A stretch of 64,000 nucleotides of DNA. Source: Nitrosopumilaceae archaeon. Lineage in GTDB: Archaea > Thermoproteota > Nitrososphaeria > Nitrososphaerales > Nitrosopumilaceae. Made by a program: the position numbers and the translations under genes. Positions 1 to 25,487 of the stretch are shown here, piece after piece (within the stretch, counting starts at the first letter, position 1; every line of letters starts with the position of its first letter). The stretch is taken from contig CBDBCR010000001.1 in NCBI GenBank assembly GCA_965203465.1, forward strand, positions 672,001 to 736,000, written 5' to 3'. Under the pieces are notes generated by a model, which searched no databases, was not told the origin of the DNA, and saw only the letters and a list, made by a program, of their open reading frames with translations.

Positions 1-74
1 CGGGGGCCGGTGCCCCGGCCGGGGCTGATCCGCGCCCGGCAGCGGCCTTTTATGCGGGCCGCCGCACCGGCCGC

Positions 75-606: not shown

Positions 607-636
607 CCCCTTTTATGCTCCCGGCCCACCGCGCGC

Positions 637-1467
637 ATGCTCAAGATGGGCCTGGATCTGGGCACCGGCTTCGTAAAGTGCGTCTCGGACCGCGGCTCGG
701 TCCGGTTCCCGTCCGTGTGCGTAAAACGCGTGCACGGGGCGTGGTCCGAAAGGGACGCCGAGGCCGTGGGTACGGGCGCGGCCGAGATGGCCGGCGCCTC
801 GGGCTCTTCTGTCGTGCGGCCCATATCGAGGGGCAGGCCCGAGCCGCGGTACGCAAAGCAGGCCGAGGCCCTGGTGCGCGAGGCGGTGAGGCTGTCGTGC
901 GCCGGGGGCGCCAAAAGCCGGGAGCCGGAAAAGATCAGCATGGTGGTGGGCCTGCCCTACCACGCCTTTGCCGACCGCGAGGCGCTCGTGCGGCTGGTCA
1001 AGCGCACGGCCGACGTCGAAAAGTGCCGGGTGGTGGCCCAGGCGTGCGGCACGCTGGTCTGCCTCGGAAAGCCGAGCGGGATATCGGTCTCGGTGGGGCA
1101 GGGCACCACCGAGATAGTTGTAGTCGAAGAGTACGAGGTCATAGACGGGGACAGTTCCAGGTGGGCATCGGACTTTGTGACCCGCAAGATAGGCAAGCTG
1201 GCCCACCTGGATTTGGGGTTGCTGGAGCGCAACAGGGAACTTTGCAAAAAGTACTCCAAGATACTGGCCGAGAACCTGGAATCGGAGGTGCTCGACATGG
1301 CCGACGGGTGCGGCAAAAAGCACGACATCGCGCTCTCGGGCGGCGGGCTGCTGCTGCCCGGCATGCTCGACGACCTGTCCGGCCGCCTCAAAAAGAGGTT
1401 CGGCGTTCTGGTCCCCGACGACCCCGTGATGAGCAACGCCCAGGGGCTGTACAGGCTGGCGCGATAG
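637..1467 (+). CDS. Actin-fold ATPase, ParM/StbA-like
   Basis: Actin-fold motifs: phosphate-1 GLDLGTGFVK, phosphate-2 VSVGQGTTE, adenosine LSGGG, C-terminal DDPVMSNAQG; TTTTAT box at ~611. Confidence 0.85.
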   Translation: MLKMGLDLGTGFVKCVSDRGSVRFPSVCVKRVHGAWSERDAEAVGTGAAEMAGASGSSVVRPISRGRPEPRYAKQAEALVREAVRLSCAGGAKSREPEKISMVVGLPYHAFADREALVRLVKRTADVEKCRVVAQACGTLVCLGKPSGISVSVGQGTTEIVVVEEYEVIDGDSSRWASDFVTRKIGKLAHLDLGLLERNRELCKKYSKILAENLESEVLDMADGCGKKHDIALSGGGLLLPGMLDDLSGRLKKRFGVLVPDDPVMSNAQGLYRLAR

Positions 1468-1468
1468 C

Positions 1469-4400
1469 ATGGGCTCCAAGCGCTGGCAGCTGTCCAACAG
1501 GAAGAAACCTGCGGGGCAGCTCGGCTCCGCCGACCGGTTCCTGCCCCCCGCCGGGGAGCTTGCCGCCTGCTCGGTCTCGGTCCCCATACGGATGGACGCA
1601 AAGGCGGCCGTGATGGCCGCCGGCGGACTGGCCAGCCAGAGCGCGCGCAGCTTTGAGATCTGGTGGGACGGGGGCGAAAAGCGCCTGGACATAGTGCTGG
1701 CCGCCGAAAAGCGCGACCTGCCCGCCTACCGGCAGGCGTTCCTCAACATGTACCCCAACGCGGCCTTTTCGGACATGGCCGCCACCGTCCCGTCCTGGTT
1801 CCCGCCGGGCCCCGAGTGCCGGTTCTTCGACGTCGGCACCTACCACGGCCACTACGCCTCGGTGCTCGACAAGGGCAGGGCCCACCAGCTGATGTCGCAG
1901 GTGGCCGCCACCGTCCAGCTCTCCGGCAGGGCTTGGATCCAGTTCGTCTTCAAGCTACACCCGTTCAACGGGTTTCTGAGGAGGCACGTGACGCGCCTCA
2001 ACGCCAAGAACCGCGAGATATCGCGCGGCAAGTACCTGTCCAACACGGAAATACTGATGCACCCCGACAAAAAGCCGCACGACCACCCGGAGCTGGGCTA
2101 CGACTATACGAACAACTACCCGGGCCTCCAAAAGCACGCCACGCTCAAGATGCAGGGGGCCCACGTGCTCATGTCCGCGCGCGGCGCCGTCTGCGGCGGC
2201 GACGACCTGGATCTCCACTTTGACGAGATCGAGGCCATGCCCGTCGAAAACATACACTCGGGCCACGAGCACCTGACCAAGTTCGGGTACAAGTACCAGG
2301 ACTTTGCCGACGAGAAAAAGGCGCGCGTGAAGATAGGCAGGGAAAAGGGGACGCGGATGGGCCTGTTCCCGGGCAGGCTGCTACCCGATCCGGCCAGGTT
2401 CACGGACAAGGCTACGGGCAAGTACTTCGACAAGGGGATATTCGGGTACGGCGAACGCAGGCCCCTGCCGTTCCTGCTGCTCAACTTGTCAGAGATCCCG
2501 CTGCTGGTCCACCTGCCGGCGCCGGCCACCCCCAACATCGAGACGACCCGCGGCGTCTCGATACCCTCAAAGCCGTCCGAAAAAGAGGGCGCCAACGTCG
2601 GCTTTTTCAGGCAGCCCTCGCCTTCCGGCTTCGACTGGTCCGGGGCGTGGGGGGTGTCGGCCAGGTCCAAGGACGCGGGCGCGGCCGTCGTCTCGGAGGC
2701 CGACTTTGCCACCCACCTGTACGCCGTGGGCGCGTCGGGCTCGGGCAAGACTTCCTTGATACGGCTGCTGGCCAAGCATTTGGAGGCGTGGAACGGTTCG
2801 GGCTTCCCCAACGCCTTCGTGTACGTGGACCCCAAGGGGGACGACTCCCACAAGTTCGTAAAGCAGTGCTCGCCCGAGGCGCTGGCCTCGGGCAGGGTCC
2901 ACTTTCTGGATCCGCAATCGACCAGGTTCTCGATAAACCCGCTCGAGCTGCCCGCCTACGCGCCCGAAGAGAGGGAGGAGACCGTATCGCGGTACGTCGG
3001 GTACTTCATGAAGACCATCGAAGAGTGGTACCAGCAGTCGGCCAGCTACGTGCAGATGGAGAGGATCTTCAGGGCCCTGCTGTTCTACCTGTACATGAGG
3101 CACGACGCCCCGACATTCCTGGACATACACGACACGATACTAAAGCTCCAGGACCGCAAGGGCGACGCTTTGCCGGAGATAATAGAGACGTTCGGCGAGC
3201 CGGACCCCGAGATGGAGCGGGCCCTCGAGAGCATAGCCACGCTAAAGGGCGAGGCGTTCACCCCTCTCCTGAACCGGGTGGAGCAGTTTGCCACCGACCC
3301 CGTGTTGAAGAGGATGTTCTCGGTCAGGCGCGGGACCGTCGATTTTGCAGATCTGATAAAGCCCGGCTCGTACACGGTGGTCAGGATATCGCCTTTGAAC
3401 ATGCCCCAGCACGTCCAGCCGCTGGCCATGCAGGCGTTCATACTAAAGCTGTGGTTCACCATACAGGAGAGGGCCAACCGGGTGCCCGACGAAAAAGACC
3501 GCACGCAGGTGGTCCTTGCTTTGGACGAGTTCCAGATAGTAAAGGACCTGCAGGTGCTCCAGCTGATGCTCGAGCAGGCCCGCTCGCTGGGCCTCGGGCT
3601 GGTGTTGTCCCACCAGACCACCGAGCAGATAAGCGACAAGCAGCTGGGCATCATTTCGGGCAACGCGGGCACCCAGCTGGTCGGCAAGGTCAACGGCAAG
3701 GACGCCTCGCGCATAGCCCAGATCTGGGATCCACAGTTCCAGACCGAACTCCAGCAGCAGCTGGCAAGCCAGGAATACTTTCACTGGACCGTGCGCGAAA
3801 AGGCCCCGCCCGGAAAGGAGCAGCCGCCCCCCATACAGTTCTGGCTGGGCGCCCCGCCCGAGCAGCTGGTGGGCGGGCAGGCGTACCAAGAGTTCGTCTC
3901 CGGCCAGCTGGAAAGGTACGGGCGCGGCGTGGTAGGCAGCGCAGAGTCGGCCGCCCGCGAGGCCAAGACTAGGTGGATGGAGCAGGTTACGGTAAAGCTG
4001 CCCTCCGCGCTGGAATGGAGGATAATGCTGGCCCTCAGGCAGGGGCAGAGCCTCCAGCAGGCGCAGATAGTCGATATTTTGCGCGTGGCCAACCGCACCG
4101 AGGTGATGCCCGTCCTAAAGGATATGGTCGGGCGCGGCCTGCTGGAGCGGCCCGGCGGGGGCCGGACCGCCCCGTACAGGCTCACGGACAAGGCCAAGGG
4201 CACCTACTTCGATCTGGACTTTGCCGGGGTCGGCACGGCCGGCGACGTCGAGTCTTTGTGCCGCAAGGCCGCCGAATCGTACATGGCCTGGGACATGTTC
4301 GTGGCCGTGGCCAGCCAGAGGATATCCAAGGGCAGGGACAGGACCGACCTGGTGGCCTACAACTACGAGACGGGCGTGCCGGTCAGCGTGGAGATAGAGT

Positions 4401-4570
4401 CGGCCAGCGAGGTGTCCAGCCACCGCGAGCACGTCCGGTACAACATGGTAAAGTGGAGGAAGATGGGCTTCGGCGCCTGCCACGTGTGGTCCACCAGCCC
4501 CAAGGTGCGCGAGATCTACGACACTTTGGACGAGCGCGACAAGAAGGTCGTAGAGCTCGTGGTCACCTGA
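1469..4570 (+). CDS. VirD4/TraD/HerA-like type IV coupling ATPase with C-terminal wHTH and PD-(D/E)xK-like domain
   Basis: Walker A GASGSGKT, YVDPKGD, INPLE, Walker B LALDEFQ, ARSLGLGLVLSHQ. C-terminus has a wHTH pattern (...MVGRGLLE...YRLTDKA) followed by TDLVAY...VEIES. Starts 1 nt after the ParM-like stop. Confidence 0.85.
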   Translation: MGSKRWQLSNRKKPAGQLGSADRFLPPAGELAACSVSVPIRMDAKAAVMAAGGLASQSARSFEIWWDGGEKRLDIVLAAEKRDLPAYRQAFLNMYPNAAFSDMAATVPSWFPPGPECRFFDVGTYHGHYASVLDKGRAHQLMSQVAATVQLSGRAWIQFVFKLHPFNGFLRRHVTRLNAKNREISRGKYLSNTEILMHPDKKPHDHPELGYDYTNNYPGLQKHATLKMQGAHVLMSARGAVCGGDDLDLHFDEIEAMPVENIHSGHEHLTKFGYKYQDFADEKKARVKIGREKGTRMGLFPGRLLPDPARFTDKATGKYFDKGIFGYGERRPLPFLLLNLSEIPLLVHLPAPATPNIETTRGVSIPSKPSEKEGANVGFFRQPSPSGFDWSGAWGVSARSKDAGAAVVSEADFATHLYAVGASGSGKTSLIRLLAKHLEAWNGSGFPNAFVYVDPKGDDSHKFVKQCSPEALASGRVHFLDPQSTRFSINPLELPAYAPEEREETVSRYVGYFMKTIEEWYQQSASYVQMERIFRALLFYLYMRHDAPTFLDIHDTILKLQDRKGDALPEIIETFGEPDPEMERALESIATLKGEAFTPLLNRVEQFATDPVLKRMFSVRRGTVDFADLIKPGSYTVVRISPLNMPQHVQPLAMQAFILKLWFTIQERANRVPDEKDRTQVVLALDEFQIVKDLQVLQLMLEQARSLGLGLVLSHQTTEQISDKQLGIISGNAGTQLVGKVNGKDASRIAQIWDPQFQTELQQQLASQEYFHWTVREKAPPGKEQPPPIQFWLGAPPEQLVGGQAYQEFVSGQLERYGRGVVGSAESAAREAKTRWMEQVTVKLPSALEWRIMLALRQGQSLQQAQIVDILRVANRTEVMPVLKDMVGRGLLERPGGGRTAPYRLTDKAKGTYFDLDFAGVGTAGDVESLCRKAAESYMAWDMFVAVASQRISKGRDRTDLVAYNYETGVPVSVEIESASEVSSHREHVRYNMVKWRKMGFGACHVWSTSPKVREIYDTLDERDKKVVELVVT

Positions 4571-4624
4571 TCACGCCCGAGAGCACGGCGGCCAGACCAC
4601 GCCCCGGGGGCTTTCGGAACGAGG

Positions 4625-4933
4625 TCACTTGATCTCCAGCCTGTCCAGCGGGTCAAAGTCGAGCTTGTCGACGGGCTCTGTCCTGCGCTCTTCGGCCGCG
4701 CCCTTCATGGTCTTTTCGATGGCCTTGCGCGCCTGGGAGACGTAGTCCTCGACGGCCTTGGCGTCCTTTTTGCCCAGGACGTCCTGCCGCTTGGCCACCA
4801 GCATTCCGGCCACCGTGTCCATGGATATTTCGTCGCCGGCCTCCCACCCCAGGTCCCTGACCAGGTGGGTGGGCACGCTCACCATGTACGCCCTGTCCTT
4901 TTTGCGCAGCGTCCGGCGCCACCTCTTGTCCAC
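4625..4933 (-). CDS. AbrB/MazE/SpoVT-family DNA-binding protein
   Basis: RTLRKKDRAYMVSVPTHLVRDLGWEAGDEI is a swapped-hairpin signature. Start reassigned to GTG 4933, ~21 nt below a TTAAAT box at 4954-4959; the upstream part of the track ORF is translated repeat. Confidence 0.8.
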   Translation of the reverse strand: MDKRWRRTLRKKDRAYMVSVPTHLVRDLGWEAGDEISMDTVAGMLVAKRQDVLGKKDAKAVEDYVSQARKAIEKTMKGAAEERRTEPVDKLDFDPLDRLEIK

Positions 4934-4953
4934 GACGCCAACGGGCGGGCCCG

Positions 4954-4959
4954 ATTTAA
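4954..4959 (-). promoter_or_regulatory. Archaeal TATA box of the AbrB-like gene, abutting the iteron array
   Basis: TTAAAT on the minus strand at the typical distance from the GTG start. Confidence 0.6.
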
Positions 4960-4961
4960 GG

Positions 4962-5139
4962 CAGAAAAGCGCCTCCAGGCGCCTTTTGCTGTACCTCCAG
5001 GCGCTTTTGCTACGACCTGCTGTGCTTGAAGGCGCCTTTTTGCTGTGCTTTGAGGCGCCTTTTCGAATTCCTGCTGTACCTCTAGGCGCTTTTCTGCTGT
5101 GCTTGAAGGCGCCTTTTTGCTGTACCTGAAGGCGCCTTT
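4962..5139. repeat. Iteron-like array: 7 direct and 1 inverted AGGCGC(C)TTTT-GCTGT units
   Basis: AGGCGC cores start at 4977, 4999, 5030, 5053, 5084, 5107 and 5130 (spacings 22, 31, 23, 31, 23, 23); inverted copy CAGAAAAGCGCCT at 4962-4974. Confidence 0.85.
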
Positions 5140-5922
5140 GGGCACGGCCGCGCCGCCCTCGCATTCACCCACGAAAACGAAAACAAAACGGGAGGAGCAC
5201 GGCTCCCCCGAATCCTCCCGACCTAAGCGGGCCGCCCGTCGGCGGCCCACGTCCCGGACCGTCTCGGCCGGCTGGACACCGGCCGGACCCAGGGATCGCG
5301 GCCATGGCCGGCCCCGCCCCCGGACGATCTTGGACGCACGCCCAGACCGGTTCGGCCCCGGCAGAGCCTAACCGGCTGGCAGGATCGGGCCTTCGGCGGT
5401 TCTTTCCAGATCCGGTTCTTTGCCCTACCGGGTTCGGCACCCCTCCGGAGGCCGGTTCTCCACATACGCGCAGTCGGACGAGCCGCCCCGTCCGGTACTT
5501 GTCTCCGGCCACCATGAGACTGTCGGTTGAACCGCGTCGGCCGGTACTCCGGCCAAGTCTTGCCCGTCTGAACGTCCGGCCTGACCGGCCGCCTTGTCTG
5601 TCCGTCCAACCTCGTTCTTTCGACACCGTTTAGATTCCGTACACAACCAGCAGTCAAAAACAGGTTCGCCACGGTTGGCAGCTGTCAGCTTCGTATGTCC
5701 GACGTGGTTCCTCCCGGACTTCAGGGCGCCTTTCTCCGCCGCCCGGACACCGGCCACAGGCGTGTGGGCGGGTTTGTCCTCTGGTCAGATCCGGCCAAGA
5801 TCGCCTCCAGATTGTATTAGCGTACGGCACGACGGCACGGCACGACGGCAGAAAATCCAAGTACGCGGCACTCGGCTTGTCTGCCCGATCTGGCACCTGT
5901 TCTGGCTTCGGATTTGCTCACG

Positions 5923-6417
5923 CCCGTGGCTCCATGGCCCGTGGCTCCATGGCCCGTGGCTCCATGGCCCGTGGCTCCATGGCCCGTGGCTCCATGGCCC
6001 GTGGCTCCATGGCCCGTGGCTCCATGGCCCGTGGCTCCATGGCCCGTGGCTCCATGGCCCGTGGCTCCATGGCCCGTGGCTCCATGGCCCGTGGCTCCAT
6101 GGCCCGTGGCTCCATGGCCCGTGGCTCCATGGCCCGTGGCTCCATGGCCCGTGGCTCCATGGCCCGTGGCTCCATGGCCCGTGGCTCCATGGCCCGTGGC
6201 TCCATGGCCCGTGGCTCCATGGCCCGTGGCTCCATGGCCCGTGGCTCCATGGCCCGTGGCTCCATGGCCCGTGGCTCCATGGCCCGTGGCTCCATGGCCC
6301 GTGGCTCCATGGCCCGTGGCTCCATGGCCCGTGGCTCCATGGCCCGTGGCTCCATGGCCCGTGGCTCCATGGCCCGTGGCTCCATGGCCCGTGGCTCCAT
6401 GGCCCGTGGCTCCATGG
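5923..6417. repeat. Perfect tandem repeat (CCCGTGGCTCCATGG) x33
   Basis: Directly visible 15-bp unit with no mismatches and no spacers; stop-free in all six frames. Confidence 0.97.
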
Positions 6418-6746
6418 CACAAATGAATCCGAATTGCCAGGAGGCACACGCTTCTTTGAACCCAGTCTTGTTGGTTCGTTAGATCATATTGTCCACTTGG
6501 GAGCACGAGATCGGCATCCCTTGGGGAGACCGAACAGGAACGGCGGATCCGGCCGTACTTTGCTAAGATGTTTTTCACATGAGCGGCAGATTCCCAGCCC
6601 GTCTTTGCAGTCGATCCAAAAGACGGGCGCACTCCCGTTCTGCACGCGGACAGAGCGGCGGCGTCCGTACCGCCGCCCGGATCCGGCTTGGGCTCGGCCC
6701 GAATTGCCGCAACGCACGCCGTACCCGTCTGTCGCCTTGCCTGTGA

Positions 6747-9386: not shown

Positions 9387-9790
9387 CCCGCAGATCTAGG
9401 ATCGGGGCAAATAGCCGTTGCTGAAGGCGAACGCAAAGGCCGGCAGAGCCGGGCGACATACATGCCTAGGGGAAAGGCGGGCGCAGGGCGCAGTCGCCAA
9501 GGCCGGAGATCTTTGGCCCGGCGGCACTAGATCCGGCCAACAACGCAAATCTGCTGCCGGGCCGGGTTCGGCGTCCTGTTTTGGCATGGGGAAGCGGCCT
9601 TGGCTGGCAAGCCACCGGAAATGCCCGGCGTCCCGCCCCAGAACGGGCGAGTGGTGCCGTCGGCGCCGCGCCACCTGTCGGCCTTAGACTGCCCCCGGGC
9701 CGGCAGGGCCGTCCGGAGATGCATGGCGGGCGCCAGTTTCGGTCTCTATCCTGCCGCATCCCGCGGGGTTGGCACGCATCAAGCGTGGGT

Positions 9791-17508: not shown

Positions 17509-20500
17509 GTGGCCGCCATACGCCGAGCAGGTGGCTCGGTGCCAGAATCCAGAGCCGAAATTCACGTACAAAGCGACGTCTTTGCGTCAGGCGACGAAAA
17601 ACTCTTGTTCGAAAGGCTCTACGAGCAGTCCCAAGATCTGGGATACATGTTTTATTCCGCCCTGTTCGTCCTGCGCCGTAACGCGCCGGGGCAATCTTCG
17701 AACCCGAGCGATCCGCCGGGGGGCGTAAACCCGGACAGGATGGCGCAGTCTGCACACTCTGTCCGTGAAACGCTAGTGCATGCAGAAGATAAACTGAAAC
17801 TCGATCTGTTTGCCTATTCCGCCTATGGAAAAGCAACACCGACGTCCGCAGACAAAACCGAGAAGAAATTCTTAAACAACCCTACACATGTAGAAAAAAT
17901 ACAGTCGATCAGCGATCCTGGCAGGTATCTCCCCAAACACCTGTCTCGCTTGTACAAGGACATCAACAAACTCCACCGGTGGTTTGTGAAGGTGTCCCAC
18001 CACGGCCCGCCCCCGTCCGAGCAAGAATATCGCAAGAAACTCGGCGCGTTTACCCGCCACATGAACCGGTTGCTGGAGCCTTATTTTCAGGTAACCCGCC
18101 AGATCGACGCCGCGCTAAAAGATCAGGGGGCGGATCTGGAAAAGATGGAGGCCCTGCTCTGCAAGAACTGGCAAGCCTACCACTATTTTTTTAAAAACGC
18201 GTCTGCCCGGTGGCTGGACGCGCTGATTCGAAGCGGAACCTACTTTGTCCATGTGCCAGGATCCGTGTCGGATACGGGCGAGTACATGCCAATAGTATGG
18301 CCCGAATCCAAGTATCTGGCGCGCATTGCAAAAGAAAGGCCGGAACTGGTCACGGACACGATTCTGAAGGTGCGCGTCACAGAGCGCAAAAACCCCACCG
18401 TGCTGGCAGACTTTGCCCAGGCCGCATCCGAAATGCCCGCAAAGTTCGGTAAAAAAATAGCAAACAAGGCACTCGAAGAACAGTGGCACCGCAATGCCGG
18501 CCAGCGCCTGCCTTGGATCGTGGCCGAACAGATCGGCGCGCTTGCCGCAAAGTTGGCTCCCAAGGAATTCGACACCGCCTTGAAACTGTGCGAGAACCTG
18601 CTACACCTGAACGACGGCGACGGATATGCGCGGGGGTATCTAAACGACTACGATTATCGGTGCGTGCTGGAAACAACCGTCACCGTTCTGGCAGAACGCG
18701 ACGCAAACAAGACGCTGGACATGTTGTGCAATATGCTGTCAAGGGCGGTCCGGACGATAAACGCGGGGCTCGGGAGCGGCCACATGCCCTCGAGCTCTTG
18801 GCACTGGGACGTCGGGTGCGACGAGCGGAACATGCACATGGGGGCAATATCGCTGCTGATAGTGGCGATACGCAAGGTTCTGGAGATGTCCGAAAGACAG
18901 ATCGACGATCTCGCCGGTTCGCTCGAGGTGCTCGACTCGTACAAGGATCCCGTATTCCTCAGAATCAAGATGCACTTTTACGCAAAGCATCCGGCCCGTT
19001 TCGTGAAAGAAATGCTCCCTTTGGCGTCTTCGCAGTTTGACGTAAAAGAGTGCGAGAGCGAGTATCGGCGCATGCTGCAGTTCGGCTATCTGTATTTCGA
19101 CGGCGATACGCGAAAAGATCTGCGCGCAAAGATCCTTGCCGGGCCCCGCCCCTACACCGGCGACCCCGCAGGTCACGAAAGACGCAAAGATTCCTGGACG
19201 CTGGAAAAACTGCACCCTCTCCGAAACGTGGAGGAATTCAACCCGGAATACACGTCTTTGAAGATCAAGTTGGGGGGGCCCATGGACTTCGGCGAACACA
19301 CGCCCGCGTATGCCACACCAAAACCGACCTTGGATCCGTGCATGTCGCCCGAAGAGGTGATCCAGTACTTGGAATCGCACAAAGACGAGTTCGACGACAA
19401 CTATCACGAATTCAGGCGCTCGGTGTCCAGAAACCCGTCCGAATACTGCAAGCTGGCGAGCCGCATGCGCGACATGCCGGTGCTGTTTCTCCGCGGGTTC
19501 TTTGACGAACTGTCTGACGCCGATGCGGCGCTTGACTGGGAACCTGTCTTGGATCTCTGCGGACTGATGATGGACGACGCCGACACTTCGCTCATTTCTG
19601 ATTCACTGTTGGACGACTGTGGAAACATGCTGCGGAAAAATCTCACGCCCGACAAGATCCCGTTCAGTCTGCGCGGCAAAGTATGGAACGTGCTGGATCG
19701 AGCGACGCGAATCGTGCTGTCCCGTTACGGCTCGCATCGCGAATATTCAAAGCCGGGCAACGCGTTCAATTCCTGCATAAACAGCGGAACGGGGCAGACG
19801 ACGCTTGCGATCGTACAATACGCCGCTTGGTGCCACCGTGGACTAGCACGGGGCGGCGAACCCGGCCGGCTCGTAGACGAGGCCAAGTCCGCGCTCGAGT
19901 CGTTGCTGGATCGGCACAAGTCCAATTCCGTTCACGCCGCGATGGGGATCAACTTCGCCAGACTGGCGGATCTGGACGAGGAATGGGCTTCAAGTCAGAC
20001 AAACTCGATATTCGACCACGGGCATTCCTCGGGGGCCGCCGCTTGGGAGGCGTACGTGCAAAGCTGCGTGCGCCAAACCAGCTTTGAGCTGCTTTATGCG
20101 GAATACTTGTACAGGTTTGATGCTGTCTCTGATCCCGGCACACTCAAAATGATGTCGGATCACGTGGCCGTGGCGCACTTGCACGGCCTTGAAAAAACCG
20201 ACGCGTTGATCGACTCGATCATGAAAAAAGACAGCCCGGGACTGCTGTCTTACCTGGTAGAGTGCATGGGCAAATCCGCCAGCAAACTGTCCGTCAAAGA
20301 TCTCAAGGCGGACATGGGCGCGTTTGCCTCGCGCGAGGAAGTGTCCAAGACTCCGAGCGCGGGGTGGCTGTTCCTGAACAGGCACGCGGACGACGGGGCC
20401 CGCTTGGCATTGCTGGATCGGGTATTGATCGCGACCGGGGGGAAGATAGAGCCGGCACACCTCGTCGTCGAGGATCTGCAGTCCACGTCGCGTTCGCACC

Positions 20501-20700
20501 CAGTCGCGACCGCGCGGTGCGTCAGGAAAATCGTGTCTGTGCTGAAAACCGGCGACGGGGTACATAGTATGCTAACGACCATCGACGAGACGCTCCAGGC
20601 AATACTTGAGGCAAAAGACGCAGATGCGGAAAGGATCGTCACGCAGGTGGCCAACGAACTGGGCGCCTACGGTTTTGAGCAGTTTAGAAAGTTTTCCTAA
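17509..20700 (+). CDS. Large alpha-helical (ARM/HEAT-like) protein with possible N-terminal HEPN-like domain; no NTPase motif
   Basis: 1063-aa ORF. N-terminal SVRETL...LHRWFVKVSHHG; YFF...WLDAL...WPESKYLARIA resembles the post-effector region of SIR2/STAND defence proteins. Start uncertain. Confidence 0.6.
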   Translation: MAAIRRAGGSVPESRAEIHVQSDVFASGDEKLLFERLYEQSQDLGYMFYSALFVLRRNAPGQSSNPSDPPGGVNPDRMAQSAHSVRETLVHAEDKLKLDLFAYSAYGKATPTSADKTEKKFLNNPTHVEKIQSISDPGRYLPKHLSRLYKDINKLHRWFVKVSHHGPPPSEQEYRKKLGAFTRHMNRLLEPYFQVTRQIDAALKDQGADLEKMEALLCKNWQAYHYFFKNASARWLDALIRSGTYFVHVPGSVSDTGEYMPIVWPESKYLARIAKERPELVTDTILKVRVTERKNPTVLADFAQAASEMPAKFGKKIANKALEEQWHRNAGQRLPWIVAEQIGALAAKLAPKEFDTALKLCENLLHLNDGDGYARGYLNDYDYRCVLETTVTVLAERDANKTLDMLCNMLSRAVRTINAGLGSGHMPSSSWHWDVGCDERNMHMGAISLLIVAIRKVLEMSERQIDDLAGSLEVLDSYKDPVFLRIKMHFYAKHPARFVKEMLPLASSQFDVKECESEYRRMLQFGYLYFDGDTRKDLRAKILAGPRPYTGDPAGHERRKDSWTLEKLHPLRNVEEFNPEYTSLKIKLGGPMDFGEHTPAYATPKPTLDPCMSPEEVIQYLESHKDEFDDNYHEFRRSVSRNPSEYCKLASRMRDMPVLFLRGFFDELSDADAALDWEPVLDLCGLMMDDADTSLISDSLLDDCGNMLRKNLTPDKIPFSLRGKVWNVLDRATRIVLSRYGSHREYSKPGNAFNSCINSGTGQTTLAIVQYAAWCHRGLARGGEPGRLVDEAKSALESLLDRHKSNSVHAAMGINFARLADLDEEWASSQTNSIFDHGHSSGAAAWEAYVQSCVRQTSFELLYAEYLYRFDAVSDPGTLKMMSDHVAVAHLHGLEKTDALIDSIMKKDSPGLLSYLVECMGKSASKLSVKDLKADMGAFASREEVSKTPSAGWLFLNRHADDGARLALLDRVLIATGGKIEPAHLVVEDLQSTSRSHPVATARCVRKIVSVLKTGDGVHSMLTTIDETLQAILEAKDADAERIVTQVANELGAYGFEQFRKFS

Positions 20701-21809: not shown

Positions 21810-24800
21810 ATGCCGAACTGGGCGTTGGAGCCGTTCAGCGTTACTGAAGACGACTTGGGCCGGCTAGATCCGAAAGACGCGGTAGATCTGATTAGAGACG
21901 TGATACACTTGGAGGCGTCCGGATCCGGCATCAAAGCTAGCACGATAGACGTATCTGCCAACATATACGCCAAAGACGGCGGTATAGACGGCGTGGTCAA
22001 AAACGCCCCGAACGACGGAATTTGTGGCATCATCAAAAAAGGGACCACGATGTACCAGGTAAAGTCGGGCAAATTCAGCCCGACAAAAACTAAAATACGG
22101 GAAATTTTGTTCAACGGATCCGAACTAAAAGCTGGAATACGGGACTGCTTTGAGATCGGCGCAACGTTGGTGGTGGCCTTTACCGGGTGGGATGCGCCCG
22201 CTGTGCCGCCCACGCGCGTAGAGCAAGACTTTCTTGCGCAGATAGAAAAAGAAGGATGCCCGAATGCGCGTATTGAAGTATGGCGCCAAAACACAATCAT
22301 CGGCCTTTTGAAAAAATTCCCGTCACTGCAACTGTCAGTCAAGGGCCTGTCTGGCAGCCCGTTGCACATACACGAAAAGTGGCGCGGCATGGCCGACATG
22401 AGGACGCAGGTTCATCTGGGCGAAAAGCAACACGGGTTCATACGCTCCATGAGGGCCGCGCTGCGCGGCCCCGACCGATCCCCGATACGAGTCTCGGGGG
22501 AGCCGGGCATCGGCAAGACCCGCCTGGTGCTCGAAGCCACCAAAGCGGACGACCTGCGCCCGGCCGTCGTATATTTTGAGAAACCGTCGGATCTGGAAGA
22601 GCGGGGCTTTATGAGCTACGTTTGCGGGGCCGACCGGCCGATCGAGGCGATCCTGGTCGTGGACGAATGCGAATTCTCCGATCACGCATCTATCTGGAAC
22701 AAACTGAAGCACAACGCGCCGGGCATCAGGCTGGTCACCATCTTCATCGAAGAGGGCCGATCCGCCCAAACCATGCCCGCCCCGCCGCTGGAGGACGAGG
22801 AACTCGAAAAAATCATCAAGGCGTACATAGGAGACGACCCCAACATACGGCGCTGGACAGAATGGTGCCGTCCGTCGCCTCGAGCCGCGCACATCATAGG
22901 CCACAATCTCAAAAACAACCCCGACGATCTGCTCCGCCCGCCGGACGAAGTGGACGTCTGGCGCAGATACGTCGCCGGCAAAGAGAGGTCAAAGGAAAAG
23001 ATCGACAAGCAGTACCAGATACTGCTCTGGCTCAGCCTGTTCAGGAAGTTCGGGTTCGAGAGCCCGCACGACGGCGAGGCGGACAGGATAGCTGAGATCG
23101 TGGGGCGCGAGGAGGGCATACCCAAGGGCGAGTTCGTGGGCACAGTCAGAGATCTGCGAAAGAGCAAGATACTGCAGGGCAGCACCACGCTGTACATCGC
23201 GCCAAAACTGCTCCATCTGTACTTGTGGCGCGAGTGGTGGAATACGTACAGCACAGACATGTTTCAAAAAGAGCAGGATCTTGTTCCGAGTGCATGCAGA
23301 GACTACGTAGACGGCAACTTGTCCACATGGTGCATGGACATGTTCGCATACGCTGGAACGAGTCCCGAGGCCGCCAAAATAGTGCGCAAATTCCTGTCCC
23401 CGGGCGGGTACATAGAATCGTACGCGACGATGGACTCTTTGTTGGGCGCAAGCCTTTTTTCGATCTGCGGCAGGGCCGATCCCGCCGGTGCGCTTGACTA
23501 CTTGAAAAGGACGCTCTGCAAAAGATCCAGGGGCGAACTTTCTAAATTCCGCGCGGGGCGGCGCGCCGCGGTGTCCTTCCTCGAGAGGATGGCCTCCAGG
23601 GGGGAGCGCGTGGACGACGTCGCGCACGTGCTGCTAAAGCTCGCGGAAGCGGAAAACGAAGCGTTCGCCAACAACGCGACGGGCGTGTTCCGGGGCATGT
23701 TCAAGCTGATCCGCCCGATGGCCAAGCCCGACTACATGATACGGCTGCTCAAGGGCGCCATGGAGTCGGATTCGGCCAGCGCTCGGAAAGTGGCGGTGGG
23801 CGCCTGCAGCGACGCGCTGGACGATGCCGGCTATGCCGTCCCGTACGAGGCCGACGGCATAGGGCCCGCGCCGCAGCCGTACGAGCCGACCCGGGACGAA
23901 AAGATCAGGTACCGGCTGCAGGTGCTGGGCATGCTAAGGGGCCGCGGCGGCGCCATGCCCGAAGGGGCCGCAGAGGCGGTGCTCTTACACGCCCACTCCC
24001 TGATCCTGGTGCCGGAGCTTGCAGACAGCGTTGCCGGAGCTTTGGAGGGGGTGCGGGCAGACGGAAAGAACGACGAAGAACTGGTCGAGTGCGTGTCCAG
24101 AATACTGTCGATCTGCGAGCTCGGCGAAAAAACGGCAGAGCGCCTGCAGGCGATCGCGGACGGCATATCCGGCGCCAGCTTCCATTCCAAGATGCGCAGG
24201 TACGTGGGCATGTCCGAGCACGTAGACACGGTCAGCGATTCCGCGCGCGAGAGCAGGAAAAAAGAGTTCGGCGTGCTAGCAGAGGCCGCCGCCGACCCGG
24301 ATGTCCTAAAGACCGAGCTGGACTGGCTCGTCACCGGCGAGGCCGCCCAGGGGTACCAGTTCGGCTACGAGCTGGCGGGCAGGGATCCGAAATGGCGGCT
24401 GCTGCCTGGGATCATGGGAGCCTTGAAAGGCGCGGGAGCCAAGGCCCAAAGCTCCTTCGCGGGCGGGTACCTGAGGCGCGTCCGGGAAAAAGACGCCGCC
24501 CGGTGGGGCGCCGAGCTGGACGCGGTATACGACGACGGAAAGACGTGCCGGCTGCTGCCCAGCCTGGTCCGGCTGTCGGGGGTCACGGACGAATCCGTCA
24601 GGAAAGTCATGCGCGGCGTAAGGAGCGGCAAGTTCGGGTGCAGCGCCATGGACTGCGTGGTCAATTCGGGCGGCGTTTCCGCCGAGACGTTTACAGAATG
24701 CGTAGAACTGCTCGCCGATAGCGAGGACGGCGACGCCGCGTTCGTGGCGCTGTCCATGATCCGTGCCCGCCTCGGCAGGAAGGACCTGCCAAAAGAGACC

Positions 24801-25487
24801 GTCCTGAAGATACTGCTCCACCGCAGCGTCTTGGACCGCACGGCGGAATCGGCCGGCATAGGCAGGGGCGAATGGGAGTGGAAGGACGTGGGGCTGGATT
24901 TCCTGAAACAGCACCCCGGCGACGGCGTCGGGGTGCTGGAGGCGGTGGTGGACCGCATGGACGCTCACATCCCCCTTATGCCGGAAATGGGCAAGGGGCC
25001 TGTCATGGCAGAGATCGTCAAAACGCACGGCGCAAAAGCGTGGCCCGCGCTGGCCAGGCACGTGGGCCCGCCGACGGACCGCAAGGCGCGCATGCTGCAG
25101 CTGTGGCTCGCAGGGCCCCTGTTCGACAGGGGCGACAGCGTCATGTCGTCCATCCCAATCTCGGCGATCAACGCCTGGGTCGGGGAGGACTGCGCGGCCA
25201 GGGCCGCCCACATAGCCTCTTTTCTTCCAGACAACTTTGTGTACATCTCGGAGTTTCTGTCGAAATACGGGGACAGGCAGGACGTGCAGGAAGCCTTGCG
25301 CAGAAACTTCGGCAGGGAAGGCTGGAGGGGATCGGGGGCGGCGCACTACCGGGAGAAGAAAAGGAAGGTGGACGGCCTGATGGCAGGCGAGTCGGATCCC
25401 AACATACTGTCGTGGCTCCGGTCTTACTCCGATCATTTGGACGAGACGGTAAAGCGCCACTCGGATTCCGAAGAGCGCGAATTGTGA
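21810..25487 (+). CDS. Avs-like STAND NTPase with N-terminal PD-(D/E)xK-type nuclease and C-terminal helical repeats
   Basis: DGGIDG...YQVKSG nuclease motif; Walker A GEPGIGKT; Walker B ILVVDEC; long helical C-terminus. Confidence 0.82.
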   Translation: MPNWALEPFSVTEDDLGRLDPKDAVDLIRDVIHLEASGSGIKASTIDVSANIYAKDGGIDGVVKNAPNDGICGIIKKGTTMYQVKSGKFSPTKTKIREILFNGSELKAGIRDCFEIGATLVVAFTGWDAPAVPPTRVEQDFLAQIEKEGCPNARIEVWRQNTIIGLLKKFPSLQLSVKGLSGSPLHIHEKWRGMADMRTQVHLGEKQHGFIRSMRAALRGPDRSPIRVSGEPGIGKTRLVLEATKADDLRPAVVYFEKPSDLEERGFMSYVCGADRPIEAILVVDECEFSDHASIWNKLKHNAPGIRLVTIFIEEGRSAQTMPAPPLEDEELEKIIKAYIGDDPNIRRWTEWCRPSPRAAHIIGHNLKNNPDDLLRPPDEVDVWRRYVAGKERSKEKIDKQYQILLWLSLFRKFGFESPHDGEADRIAEIVGREEGIPKGEFVGTVRDLRKSKILQGSTTLYIAPKLLHLYLWREWWNTYSTDMFQKEQDLVPSACRDYVDGNLSTWCMDMFAYAGTSPEAAKIVRKFLSPGGYIESYATMDSLLGASLFSICGRADPAGALDYLKRTLCKRSRGELSKFRAGRRAAVSFLERMASRGERVDDVAHVLLKLAEAENEAFANNATGVFRGMFKLIRPMAKPDYMIRLLKGAMESDSASARKVAVGACSDALDDAGYAVPYEADGIGPAPQPYEPTRDEKIRYRLQVLGMLRGRGGAMPEGAAEAVLLHAHSLILVPELADSVAGALEGVRADGKNDEELVECVSRILSICELGEKTAERLQAIADGISGASFHSKMRRYVGMSEHVDTVSDSARESRKKEFGVLAEAAADPDVLKTELDWLVTGEAAQGYQFGYELAGRDPKWRLLPGIMGALKGAGAKAQSSFAGGYLRRVREKDAARWGAELDAVYDDGKTCRLLPSLVRLSGVTDESVRKVMRGVRSGKFGCSAMDCVVNSGGVSAETFTECVELLADSEDGDAAFVALSMIRARLGRKDLPKETVLKILLHRSVLDRTAESAGIGRGEWEWKDVGLDFLKQHPGDGVGVLEAVVDRMDAHIPLMPEMGKGPVMAEIVKTHGAKAWPALARHVGPPTDRKARMLQLWLAGPLFDRGDSVMSSIPISAINAWVGEDCAARAAHIASFLPDNFVYISEFLSKYGDRQDVQEALRRNFGREGWRGSGAAHYREKKRKVDGLMAGESDPNILSWLRSYSDHLDETVKRHSDSEEREL

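Follow-up and report, generated by a model that had tools for sequence, protein, structure and literature searches.

The 64,000-nt stretch of Nitrosopumilaceae DNA analysed here (the window) holds an integrated mobile element with a candidate tyrosine integrase and a VirD4-like ATPase. The host genome matches the archaeal SSU model at 1442 bits, and the sources of its homologues put it among the Cenarchaeum/Nitrosopumilus-like genomes. The element is laid out as integrase, actin-like ATPase, VirD4-like ATPase, AbrB-type protein and an array of short direct repeats (Table 1). The gene pair of actin and VirD4-like ATPase is present in five copies (A–E) in the 2.26-Mb host genome. Copy A is that of the window; it is 96% identical to copy B and approximately 59% identical to copies C, D and E. 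In ParMRC systems, an actin-fold ATPase works with a small dimeric adaptor and with phased direct repeats that include the adaptor promoter, and the C-terminal peptide of the adaptor sits in the cleft between subdomains IA and IIA of the ATPase. We propose that the element carries a similar DNA-positioning module, with a protein of the AbrB fold in the place of the adaptor, and we give this reading about an even chance. The computed evidence consists of the folds, the co-occurrence of the genes, the match between array and AbrB variant, the overlap of the array with a promoter and a predicted interface that passed its controls.

Table 1. Positions of the module and its neighbouring features in the window.
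Feature	Position	Strand	Remarks
Candidate tyrosine-integrase gene, last 28 nt	1–28	+	432 amino acids (aa); full gene G000:C1:670731-672029 = L007:8730-10028
82-nt unit with GC hairpin, two copies	339–591 (339–420, 510–591)		Period 171; upstream of the actin promoter
TATA-like CTTTTATG box	610–617	+	20–27 nt before the actin ATG; same kind as the boxes of AbrB genes
Actin-like ATPase	637–1467	+	276 aa; actin fold
VirD4/TraD-like ATPase	1469–4570	+	1033 aa; C-terminal MarR-like winged helix and conserved nuclease-like end domain
AbrB/MazE-fold protein, proposed adaptor	4625–4933	-	Approximately 102 aa; linker and conserved tail ...DPLDRLEIK
TATA-like TTAAAT box of the AbrB gene	4954–4959	-	21–26 nt before the GTG
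Array of seven direct 15-nt units, core AGGCGCCTTT, and one inverted copy	4962–5139		Found by repeat search
Conserved motif TCGCATTCACCCAC, then A-rich run	5159–5195	+	Just past the array
Third AbrB paralogue, degraded remnant	5654–5896	-	Found by similarity between copies; intact in D and E
Perfect tandem repeat, 15 bp x 33.1, GCCCGTGGCTCCATG	5922–6418		Just past the module

The actin fold of the first ATPase, already named in a preliminary description of this DNA, is borne out. The nucleotide-binding motifs of the fold are intact, as in the motor of a type II (ParMRC) partition system. An alignment of 33 family members retains DxGTGFVK, LSGGG and the Gln of AQAxGT. We take this Gln to stand at the position of the catalytic Gln of actin, which is presumably Glu in MreB and ParM. 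Searches with phmmer against the PDB sequences gave only weak matches to MreB and actin (best 0.009), and the best PHROG match is a 'partition protein'. AlfA is not among the 50 fold matches listed for the actin, and the same list holds neither PilM nor FtsA, the families of a scaffold-type reading. The protein forms a separate clade that is confined to Thaumarchaeota. In an order-level sample, 6 of 40 further genomes from the same taxonomic family carried this actin family, against none of 160 from the other families of the order. A phylum-level sample searched with the family profile gave the actin in 9 of 400 other genomes, 8 of them from the same taxonomic family. The viral contigs of IMG/VR gave 15 pattern matches and no relatives of the actin, and a reading of the element as a provirus was therefore dropped. 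The CTTTTATG box is probably the promoter element of the actin gene, separate from the promoter of the AbrB gene.

A scan of one public genome per species returned 78 actin loci, all of them in Nitrososphaerota. The open reading frames (ORFs) around each actin were clustered, and an AbrB profile built from the loci was used for scanning. A small gene for a tailed DNA-binding protein lies beside the actin in 62 of the 78 loci; it is AbrB-type in 38 and of another type, 94 aa long, in 24. A candidate adaptor is thus encoded beside the motor. Of the 16 loci that have no such gene, 11 lie on contigs that break off within 2.7 kb downstream of the actin, and two show AbrB matches under the threshold. 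In the close group (25 loci, actins at least 47% identical), the order is integrase, further on actin, ATPase and a convergent AbrB gene. The AbrB gene is present in 19 of these loci and the ATPase in 15 of those 19, with a gap between actin and ATPase that is often only 10–60 nt. A more distant group (36–38% identity) resembles integrative and conjugative elements (ICEs): the actin is clustered with TFIIB-like, ParB-like, prepilin-peptidase-like membrane and large membrane proteins, and the 94-aa protein lies downstream of it on the same strand in 24 loci. In the Nitrosotalea group (31–35% identity), a convergent AbrB-type gene directly follows the actin in 19 loci. The pairing of actin and AbrB persists to 31% actin identity, also where the VirD4-like gene is missing; 23 such pairs (4 close, 19 distant) have no ATPase within -7 to +9 kb. 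Because the VirD4-like ATPase occurs in only 1 of the 53 distant loci, we regard the actin and the small tailed DNA-binding protein as the conserved pair and the ATPase as an addition of the close group.

The assignment of the small protein to the AbrB/MazE/SpoVT fold rests on its family. The window protein alone scores 21.6 bits against PF04014, under the cut-off of 24.7, and 19 of the 23 family members match this entry at E ≤ 0.01 (best 2e-9). Searched against solved structures, the family profile matches AbrB, MazE and SpoVT proteins (7d2n at 7e-5, MazE at 2e-4), and NCBIfam gives weak matches to MazE and 'addiction module antidote'. A longer ORF of 179 aa (4625–5164, minus strand) traverses the repeat array; from the family alignment and the promoter layout, the gene most likely begins at the GTG at 4933–4931. 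Across the family, the architecture is a swapped-hairpin core, a short TKKDLxEADK-like helix, a variable linker and a short conserved end peptide. The window protein ends in ...DKLDFDPLDRLEIK, the charged C-terminal tail of the preliminary description. Tails in the close group read ...LEKLRMK, ...LERLRLK, ...LDRLEIK, ...LEKLKMK or ...RLKRLSI, and those in the Nitrosotalea group ...ISLADLQY or ...LESQFEV. The 94-aa protein ends in ...SILDMNKMA or ...SLSKFENW, which to our eye resembles the AbrB tails, the motif being very short.

Loci of the Nitrosotalea group also encode, just upstream of the actin, a protein of approximately 310 aa (for example L075:8840-9748) with weak AbrB-like matches at its N-terminus. 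Three repeats of 11 residues at its end (...KLDDPDSY...) are reminiscent of the window tail ...KLDFDPLDRL.

The repeat array was found as it had been reported, with seven direct repeats spaced by 22–23 or 31 bp and abutting the AbrB promoter. The units of CCTCCAGGCGCCTTT start at 4972, 4994, 5025, 5048, 5079, 5102 and 5125, which gives spacings of 22, 31, 23, 31, 23 and 23 bp. An inverted copy of the unit at 4965–4979 adjoins the TATA-like box, and the program TRF reports a super-period of 54 bp. With at most one mismatch, AGGCGCCTTTT occurs seven times in the 64 kb, five of them in the array; the expected number is 1.98, and none of 100 shuffles reached seven. Genome-wide there are four clusters of the unit, only at copies A, B, D and E, with seven units in copy B and five each in D and E.

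The same arrangement of phased direct repeats overlapping a promoter is found in the close group. A TTTA/TTAA/TATA box lies 22–27 nt before the start codon, with the innermost repeat touching it, in all 22 close-relative loci; this layout would fit leaderless transcripts and autorepression. At least five copies of a 9-mer (at most one mismatch) were counted within 420 bp upstream of 20 of the 26 AbrB genes in the close group, against 11 of 130 random windows of the same loci. The spacing is usually 22 and 32 (or 33) bp. The sequence of the array varies with the AbrB variant (AAAGGCGCC, ACGCTTTCG, GCGGATCAT, ATGCATATT, AGCGCGCTT, GTCAAAAGT and others), while the phasing and the promoter overlap are kept. 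One related genome holds two copies of the element, one with a CCGAAAGCG-type and the other with an ATGCAT-type array, and both follow a 22/54/22/31 pattern.

A joint prediction of the actin with the AbrB tail, proposed as a check in the preliminary description, placed the tail in the cleft of the actin. The actin (33-row alignment) and AbrB residues 58–105 (23-row alignment) were used in three runs with three controls. The scores were 0.69, 0.70 and 0.80 (median 0.70), and all three controls gave 0.00. At least 86% of the contacts agree between the runs, and the partner has a pLDDT (predicted local distance difference test) of at least 58. Solved complexes attain the mark of the tool in 116 of 157 cases and mismatched pairs in 2 of 215, counts that apply only roughly because author-built alignments were used. 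The prediction supports binding, short of showing it, and is silent on affinity. Residues L99, L102 and E103 of the tail are predicted to contact actin residues 103, 131–134, 163–168 and 273–276. According to the secondary structure of the model, the contact residues line the cleft between subdomains IA and IIA, which we take to be the site of the ParR peptide on ParM and of WH2-type helices on actin. The sequences of the loci give an independent clue. An Arg at actin residue 131 is confined to three close loci, whose tail is ...LEIK with Glu at -3; the other 20 loci have D, S, T, I, V or E there, and their tails have Arg or Lys at -3. The three Arg-131 loci are split between two separate actin clades (L028 and L030 are sisters, support 99/97), and the pattern hints at a charge swap. 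As the other groove residues follow phylogeny, we make no claim of co-evolution beyond position 131.

From these parts we infer DNA binding, filament formation and partition as the purpose. AbrB dimers would bind the phased repeats, where the spacings of 22–23 and 31 bp would put the sites roughly on one face of the helix. Since the array extends into the TATA box of the AbrB gene, this binding would also repress that gene. The flexible C-terminus of AbrB would end in a short amphipathic peptide (L-D/E-x-L-x-hydrophobic), which would insert in the hydrophobic cleft between actin subdomains IA and IIA. The contact would couple the DNA of the element to actin filaments, and so move or separate copies of the element after excision.

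A number of findings weigh against the ParMRC-like reading. The working would be type II-like, but two features of that family are missing, namely a ribbon-helix-helix adaptor and a single operon. The adaptor has the AbrB/MazE/SpoVT fold and not the ribbon-helix-helix fold of ParR. The AbrB gene has its own promoter, is convergent with the actin operon and lies downstream of the VirD4-like gene; the single autoregulated parC-parM-parR operon is not found here. The earlier idea of an AbrB-adaptor analogue of ParMRC thus gains from the tail prediction and from an array that varies with AbrB at constant phasing, and loses by the convergent position of AbrB outside the actin operon. The label 'ParM-like' for the actin is too specific. 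Among the 50 fold matches listed, MamK and MreB are closest and ParM is less near, so that the listed matches do not point specifically to the ParM/Alp family. The phosphate-2 motif (S-I-G-Q-G-T-T-E) has Ser in 33 of 33 sequences where actins have Asp. The score of the predicted complex may owe something to likeness, because solved structures with an amphipathic helix in the actin cleft are numerous.

The distribution of the parts also counts on this side. The three parts recur together in close relatives, a point for which the preliminary description had proposed a neighbourhood search, but in a third of the related loci a different small protein replaces AbrB. The preliminary description had named homologous actin loci that lack AbrB and repeats as one result that would refute it. 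AbrB is present in 38 of the 78 loci; long arrays are confined to elements that bear the VirD4-like gene. The four close loci that lack the ATPase belong to one actin clade and have just 2–3 sites beside the box. The Nitrosotalea loci inspected have two palindromes 23–32 bp apart, or 2–3 operator-like sites at most. Regular long arrays were sought and not found in the Nitrosotalea group or in the group with the 94-aa protein; in the latter, three 23-nt repeats follow the 94-aa gene at one locus, whereas three other loci lack them. Because long arrays are confined in this way, their expansion may serve transfer and not partition. In copies D and E, an AGGCGCC array is retained next to a broken AbrB gene, which fits action in trans or a recent gene conversion and not the simple picture. 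A replication gene was not recognised in the module or among the larger ORFs of the window, and for this reason the extrachromosomal phase is only assumed.

The VirD4-like ATPase is central to the rival reading that survives best. It matches the Pfam entry PF10412 (TrwB-type all-alpha/DNA-binding domain) over residues 657–741 with 24.8 bits against a cut-off of 20.5. The NCBIfam matches (VirD4-like CD1115 and SXT_TraD) are both far under their cut-offs, and phmmer found no match in the PDB sequences. An Atlas look-up of residues 1–400 gave only unnamed or DUF8128 clusters (0.91–0.92), from which no inference was drawn. In several relatives, the first approximately 400 residues are encoded as a separate gene. 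Positions 3863–4567 of the window encode a MarR-like winged helix and, after it, a domain of strong conservation (DRTDL...SVEIES...SHxEH...CHVWSKS). Judged by its motif and weak fold matches, this last domain may be a PD-(D/E)xK-type nuclease; Foldseek gave only weak hits (VC1899, BstEII, NucS and FokI, E ≥ 1.1e-3), and the structure matches listed for the C-terminal part were taken up by the winged helix. Co-transcription of the actin with the coupling protein, as the preliminary description had it, would fit the gap of 1 nt in the window, but the two genes are 0.2–2.2 kb apart in several other copies. Copy D has a low-GC insert (GC3, the GC content at third codon positions, 0.31–0.37) between them.

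In this rival reading, the complex of AbrB and array would be a handle for DNA transfer that marks the DNA for the VirD4-like translocase, much like oriT accessory proteins or a clt site, and the actin would aid delivery instead of segregation at division. The gene order of actin, VirD4-like ATPase, convergent AbrB and array is kept, the actin and ATPase genes are often close together, and the confinement of long arrays to ATPase-bearing elements would be expected. The ATPase has a winged helix of its own and the conserved nuclease-like domain, and the ICE-like relatives cluster the actin with prepilin-peptidase-like and large membrane proteins. A separate ICE-like cluster in the host genome could provide a pore. 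Against these points stand the 23 loci in which actin and AbrB are paired and no ATPase is near, and the prediction of the actin as the partner of the tail. In the ATPase winged helix, the recognition region (NRxEVxPVLKxM) is nearly invariant, while the arrays and the N-terminus of AbrB vary; the arrays are for this reason more likely read by AbrB. Relaxase and pore genes were not found beside copy A. On balance, we consider a pure transfer handle rather unlikely. A combination, in which the array is both centromere and transfer handle and actin filaments bring the excised element to the VirD4-like translocase for export through the pore of a resident conjugative element, appears to us improbable. 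If true, it would add to archaeal conjugation an actin-dependent step that has no bacterial counterpart.

A further rival takes AbrB as a transcriptional regulator and nothing else, with the array as an extended operator and the nearness to the actin of no mechanical meaning. AbrB/MazE/SpoVT proteins are typically regulators. The overlap of array and AbrB promoter in 22 of 22 loci and the mere two palindromic operators of the distant relatives are what this reading would predict, and so are the several AbrB paralogues per element, each with its own repeats. The host genome has six members of the AbrB family, all within copies A, B, D and E. Copies D and E have an intact AbrB of another type directly after the ATPase, with the tail ...NAERLKRLSI and its own upstream repeats. 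They also have a third paralogue beside a 15-bp tandem repeat; its tail (...PWWTYF or ...PWWAFF) is unlike the actin-linked type. A regulator, however, has no obvious need for 5–18 phased sites over 150–400 bp, or for a conserved peptide at the extreme C-terminus on a variable linker. Nor would it explain the pairing with the actin across 31–100% actin identity, the predicted interface of tail and actin with its clean controls, or the hint of a charge swap. We judge a purely regulatory role quite unlikely.

The region beyond the array bears on a reading of the repeats as iterons of a replication origin, with the motif and hairpins beyond as the origin core. The motif TCGCATT(T/C)AC..CAC with its A-rich run recurs in the corresponding position in 15 of 22 close-relative loci despite their differing arrays. 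It may act as a divergent promoter, as a site of recombination or nicking, or as an origin. Direct repeats of approximately 22 bp beside the A-rich motif TCGCATTTAC...AAAACGAAC (15 of 22 loci), together with the GC hairpins and the tandem repeat downstream, would suit an origin. However, an initiator gene was not recognised, the repeats vary with the neighbouring AbrB variant and border its promoter; iterons are highly improbable. Scarcely credible is the reading of AbrB as a MazE-type antitoxin whose tail wraps a toxin: the MazE-related profile matches (2e-4 for the structures) and the shared layout of N-terminal DNA-binding domain and disordered partner-binding tail favour it, but in 38 loci the gene stands alone, flanked by the array on one side and by the 3' end of either the ATPase or the actin gene on the other, with no adjacent toxin and no co-directional neighbour.

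Further features surround the module. GC hairpins lie downstream of the 5159–5195 motif in the copies of this genome. In the related genome with two element copies, a 19-bp tandem repeat stands where the window has its 15-bp repeat, and in copy D a 15-bp tandem repeat lies upstream of the third AbrB paralogue. The 82-nt unit upstream of the actin occurs genome-wide only in copies of the element (two in A, four in tandem in C, one in D).

All five copies open with a candidate tyrosine-integrase gene of 398–432 aa, and the integrases of copies B, D and E are 81–82% identical to that of A. The integrase matches phrog_1 'integrase' of PHROG at 7.4e-6. No match was found in Pfam or NCBIfam, and phmmer against the PDB sequences gave only a match at 0.88 to a XerC-like protein. 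A motif HGFRKYF...MGH...SHYERY was read by eye. A tRNA gene adjoins the integrase in copies C and D. Copies D and E (G000:C3:930887-988246; L010, L011) are tandem insertions at tRNA-Lys, as judged from a 21-nt repeat of the end of the tRNA-Lys gene, found at a distance of 57 kb precisely where copy E and its integrase begin. Copy C is decayed; it has a broken ATPase and an insertion-sequence transposase, and AbrB and array are gone. In the window itself, ARAGORN found no tRNA, and Rfam at gathering thresholds gave no match. The name 'archaeal conjugative element' in the preliminary description is sound as to integration, integrase and VirD4-like ATPase, but 'conjugative' is too strong; mating-pore genes are absent from the 64-kb window.

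The separate ICE-like cluster lies at G000:C1:526416-532972 and encodes large membrane, TFIIB-like, ParB-like, winged-helix and prepilin-peptidase-like proteins; no actin gene neighbours it. It could be the source of a transfer pore for the five elements.

Defence-type cargo is dense across positions 9769–62440 of the window. It includes a ParB_N protein with PRTase-CE and an N6/N4 methylase, two GmrSD, DUF4238, DUF2130 and Schlafen/AlbA_2. Also present are two Type ISP C-terminal domains, a 1446-aa TIR-NTPase-HEAT protein, an SDH-type protease, HATPase_c and ThiF/DUF6791. The large ORFs at 17509–20700 and 21810–25487 are without a Pfam match.

Public sequencing runs that contain the sequence are mostly sponge and marine metagenomes, and RNA data sets are not among the runs listed. 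The assembled contigs of four runs are short fragments with many variants and no informative joints, which is consistent with a multi-copy element that breaks short-read assemblies.

To our knowledge, no actin-driven system for DNA segregation or positioning has been demonstrated in archaea. If the ParMRC-like reading is right, the design of motor, adaptor tail and repeat array was assembled independently with a different DNA-binding fold. The archaeal system would be compact, with a 276-aa actin, a protein of approximately 100 aa and 180 bp of DNA. The persistence of large defence-laden elements in sponge-associated and free-living ammonia oxidisers would also become easier to explain. The Salactin paper describes the function of archaeal actins as still poorly understood (PMC10746226). 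A survey of thaumarchaeal mobile elements reports ICEs with VirD4, VirB4 and TFIIB homologues, and its main text, supplements aside, makes no mention of actin, ParM, AbrB or MreB (PMC6563490). Neither this actin family nor an actin adaptor of the AbrB fold turned up in literature searches, again leaving supplements aside.

Known systems share one or more of these parts. MazE/AbrB antitoxins and regulators have the swapped-hairpin N-terminal domain, control their own genes through repeated operators and bind a partner protein with a disordered C-terminal tail; here there is no toxin gene, and the predicted partner is the actin. Among transfer systems, Streptomyces TraB has the clt repeats, which are short, direct and just downstream of the translocase gene, and TraM of the F plasmid, an autoregulated accessory protein, binds at repeated sites and connects DNA with the coupling protein TraD. 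Our case differs from both in that the winged helix of the translocase hardly varies, while the repeats do and track the AbrB gene. AlfA is approximately 275 aa long, compared with 276 aa for the actin here. The AlfA/AlfB/parN system of the Bacillus plasmid pLS32, as described in 10.1101/190744, likewise has a small 'simplified' actin, an adaptor and a repeat centromere. A specific sequence relation to AlfA is not detectable, and the adaptor fold differs.

ParMRC of plasmid R1, described as a type II partition system (PMC6669507), is alike in its actin ATPase, its small adaptor, its phased repeats that overlap the promoter and, by our prediction, the C-terminal peptide in the cleft. It differs in its ribbon-helix-helix adaptor. 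The adaptor gene and array of the window, moreover, lie approximately 3.5 kb downstream, convergent and outside the actin operon; the actin belongs to a separate clade nearest by fold to MamK and MreB, and the element is an integrated one in an archaeal host. In the AlpC/AlpA/alpS system of the Corynebacterium prophage CGP3, as described, the actin of an integrated element is tied to specific sites by a DNA-binding adaptor and moves the DNA of the element rather than performing classical plasmid partition (PMC5539076, PMC4446434). Its adaptor and actin belong to unrelated families, and it resides on a prophage; IMG/VR gave no relatives of the actin studied here. The SrpMRC system of the SXT/R391 ICEs is bacterial and has a ParM-type actin, and replication and relaxase functions were not identified in our element. 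SrpMRC is nevertheless the nearest functional precedent: in the published description, it is an actin-type partition system on a normally integrated element, needed only in the excised, plasmid-like phase (PMC4489591).

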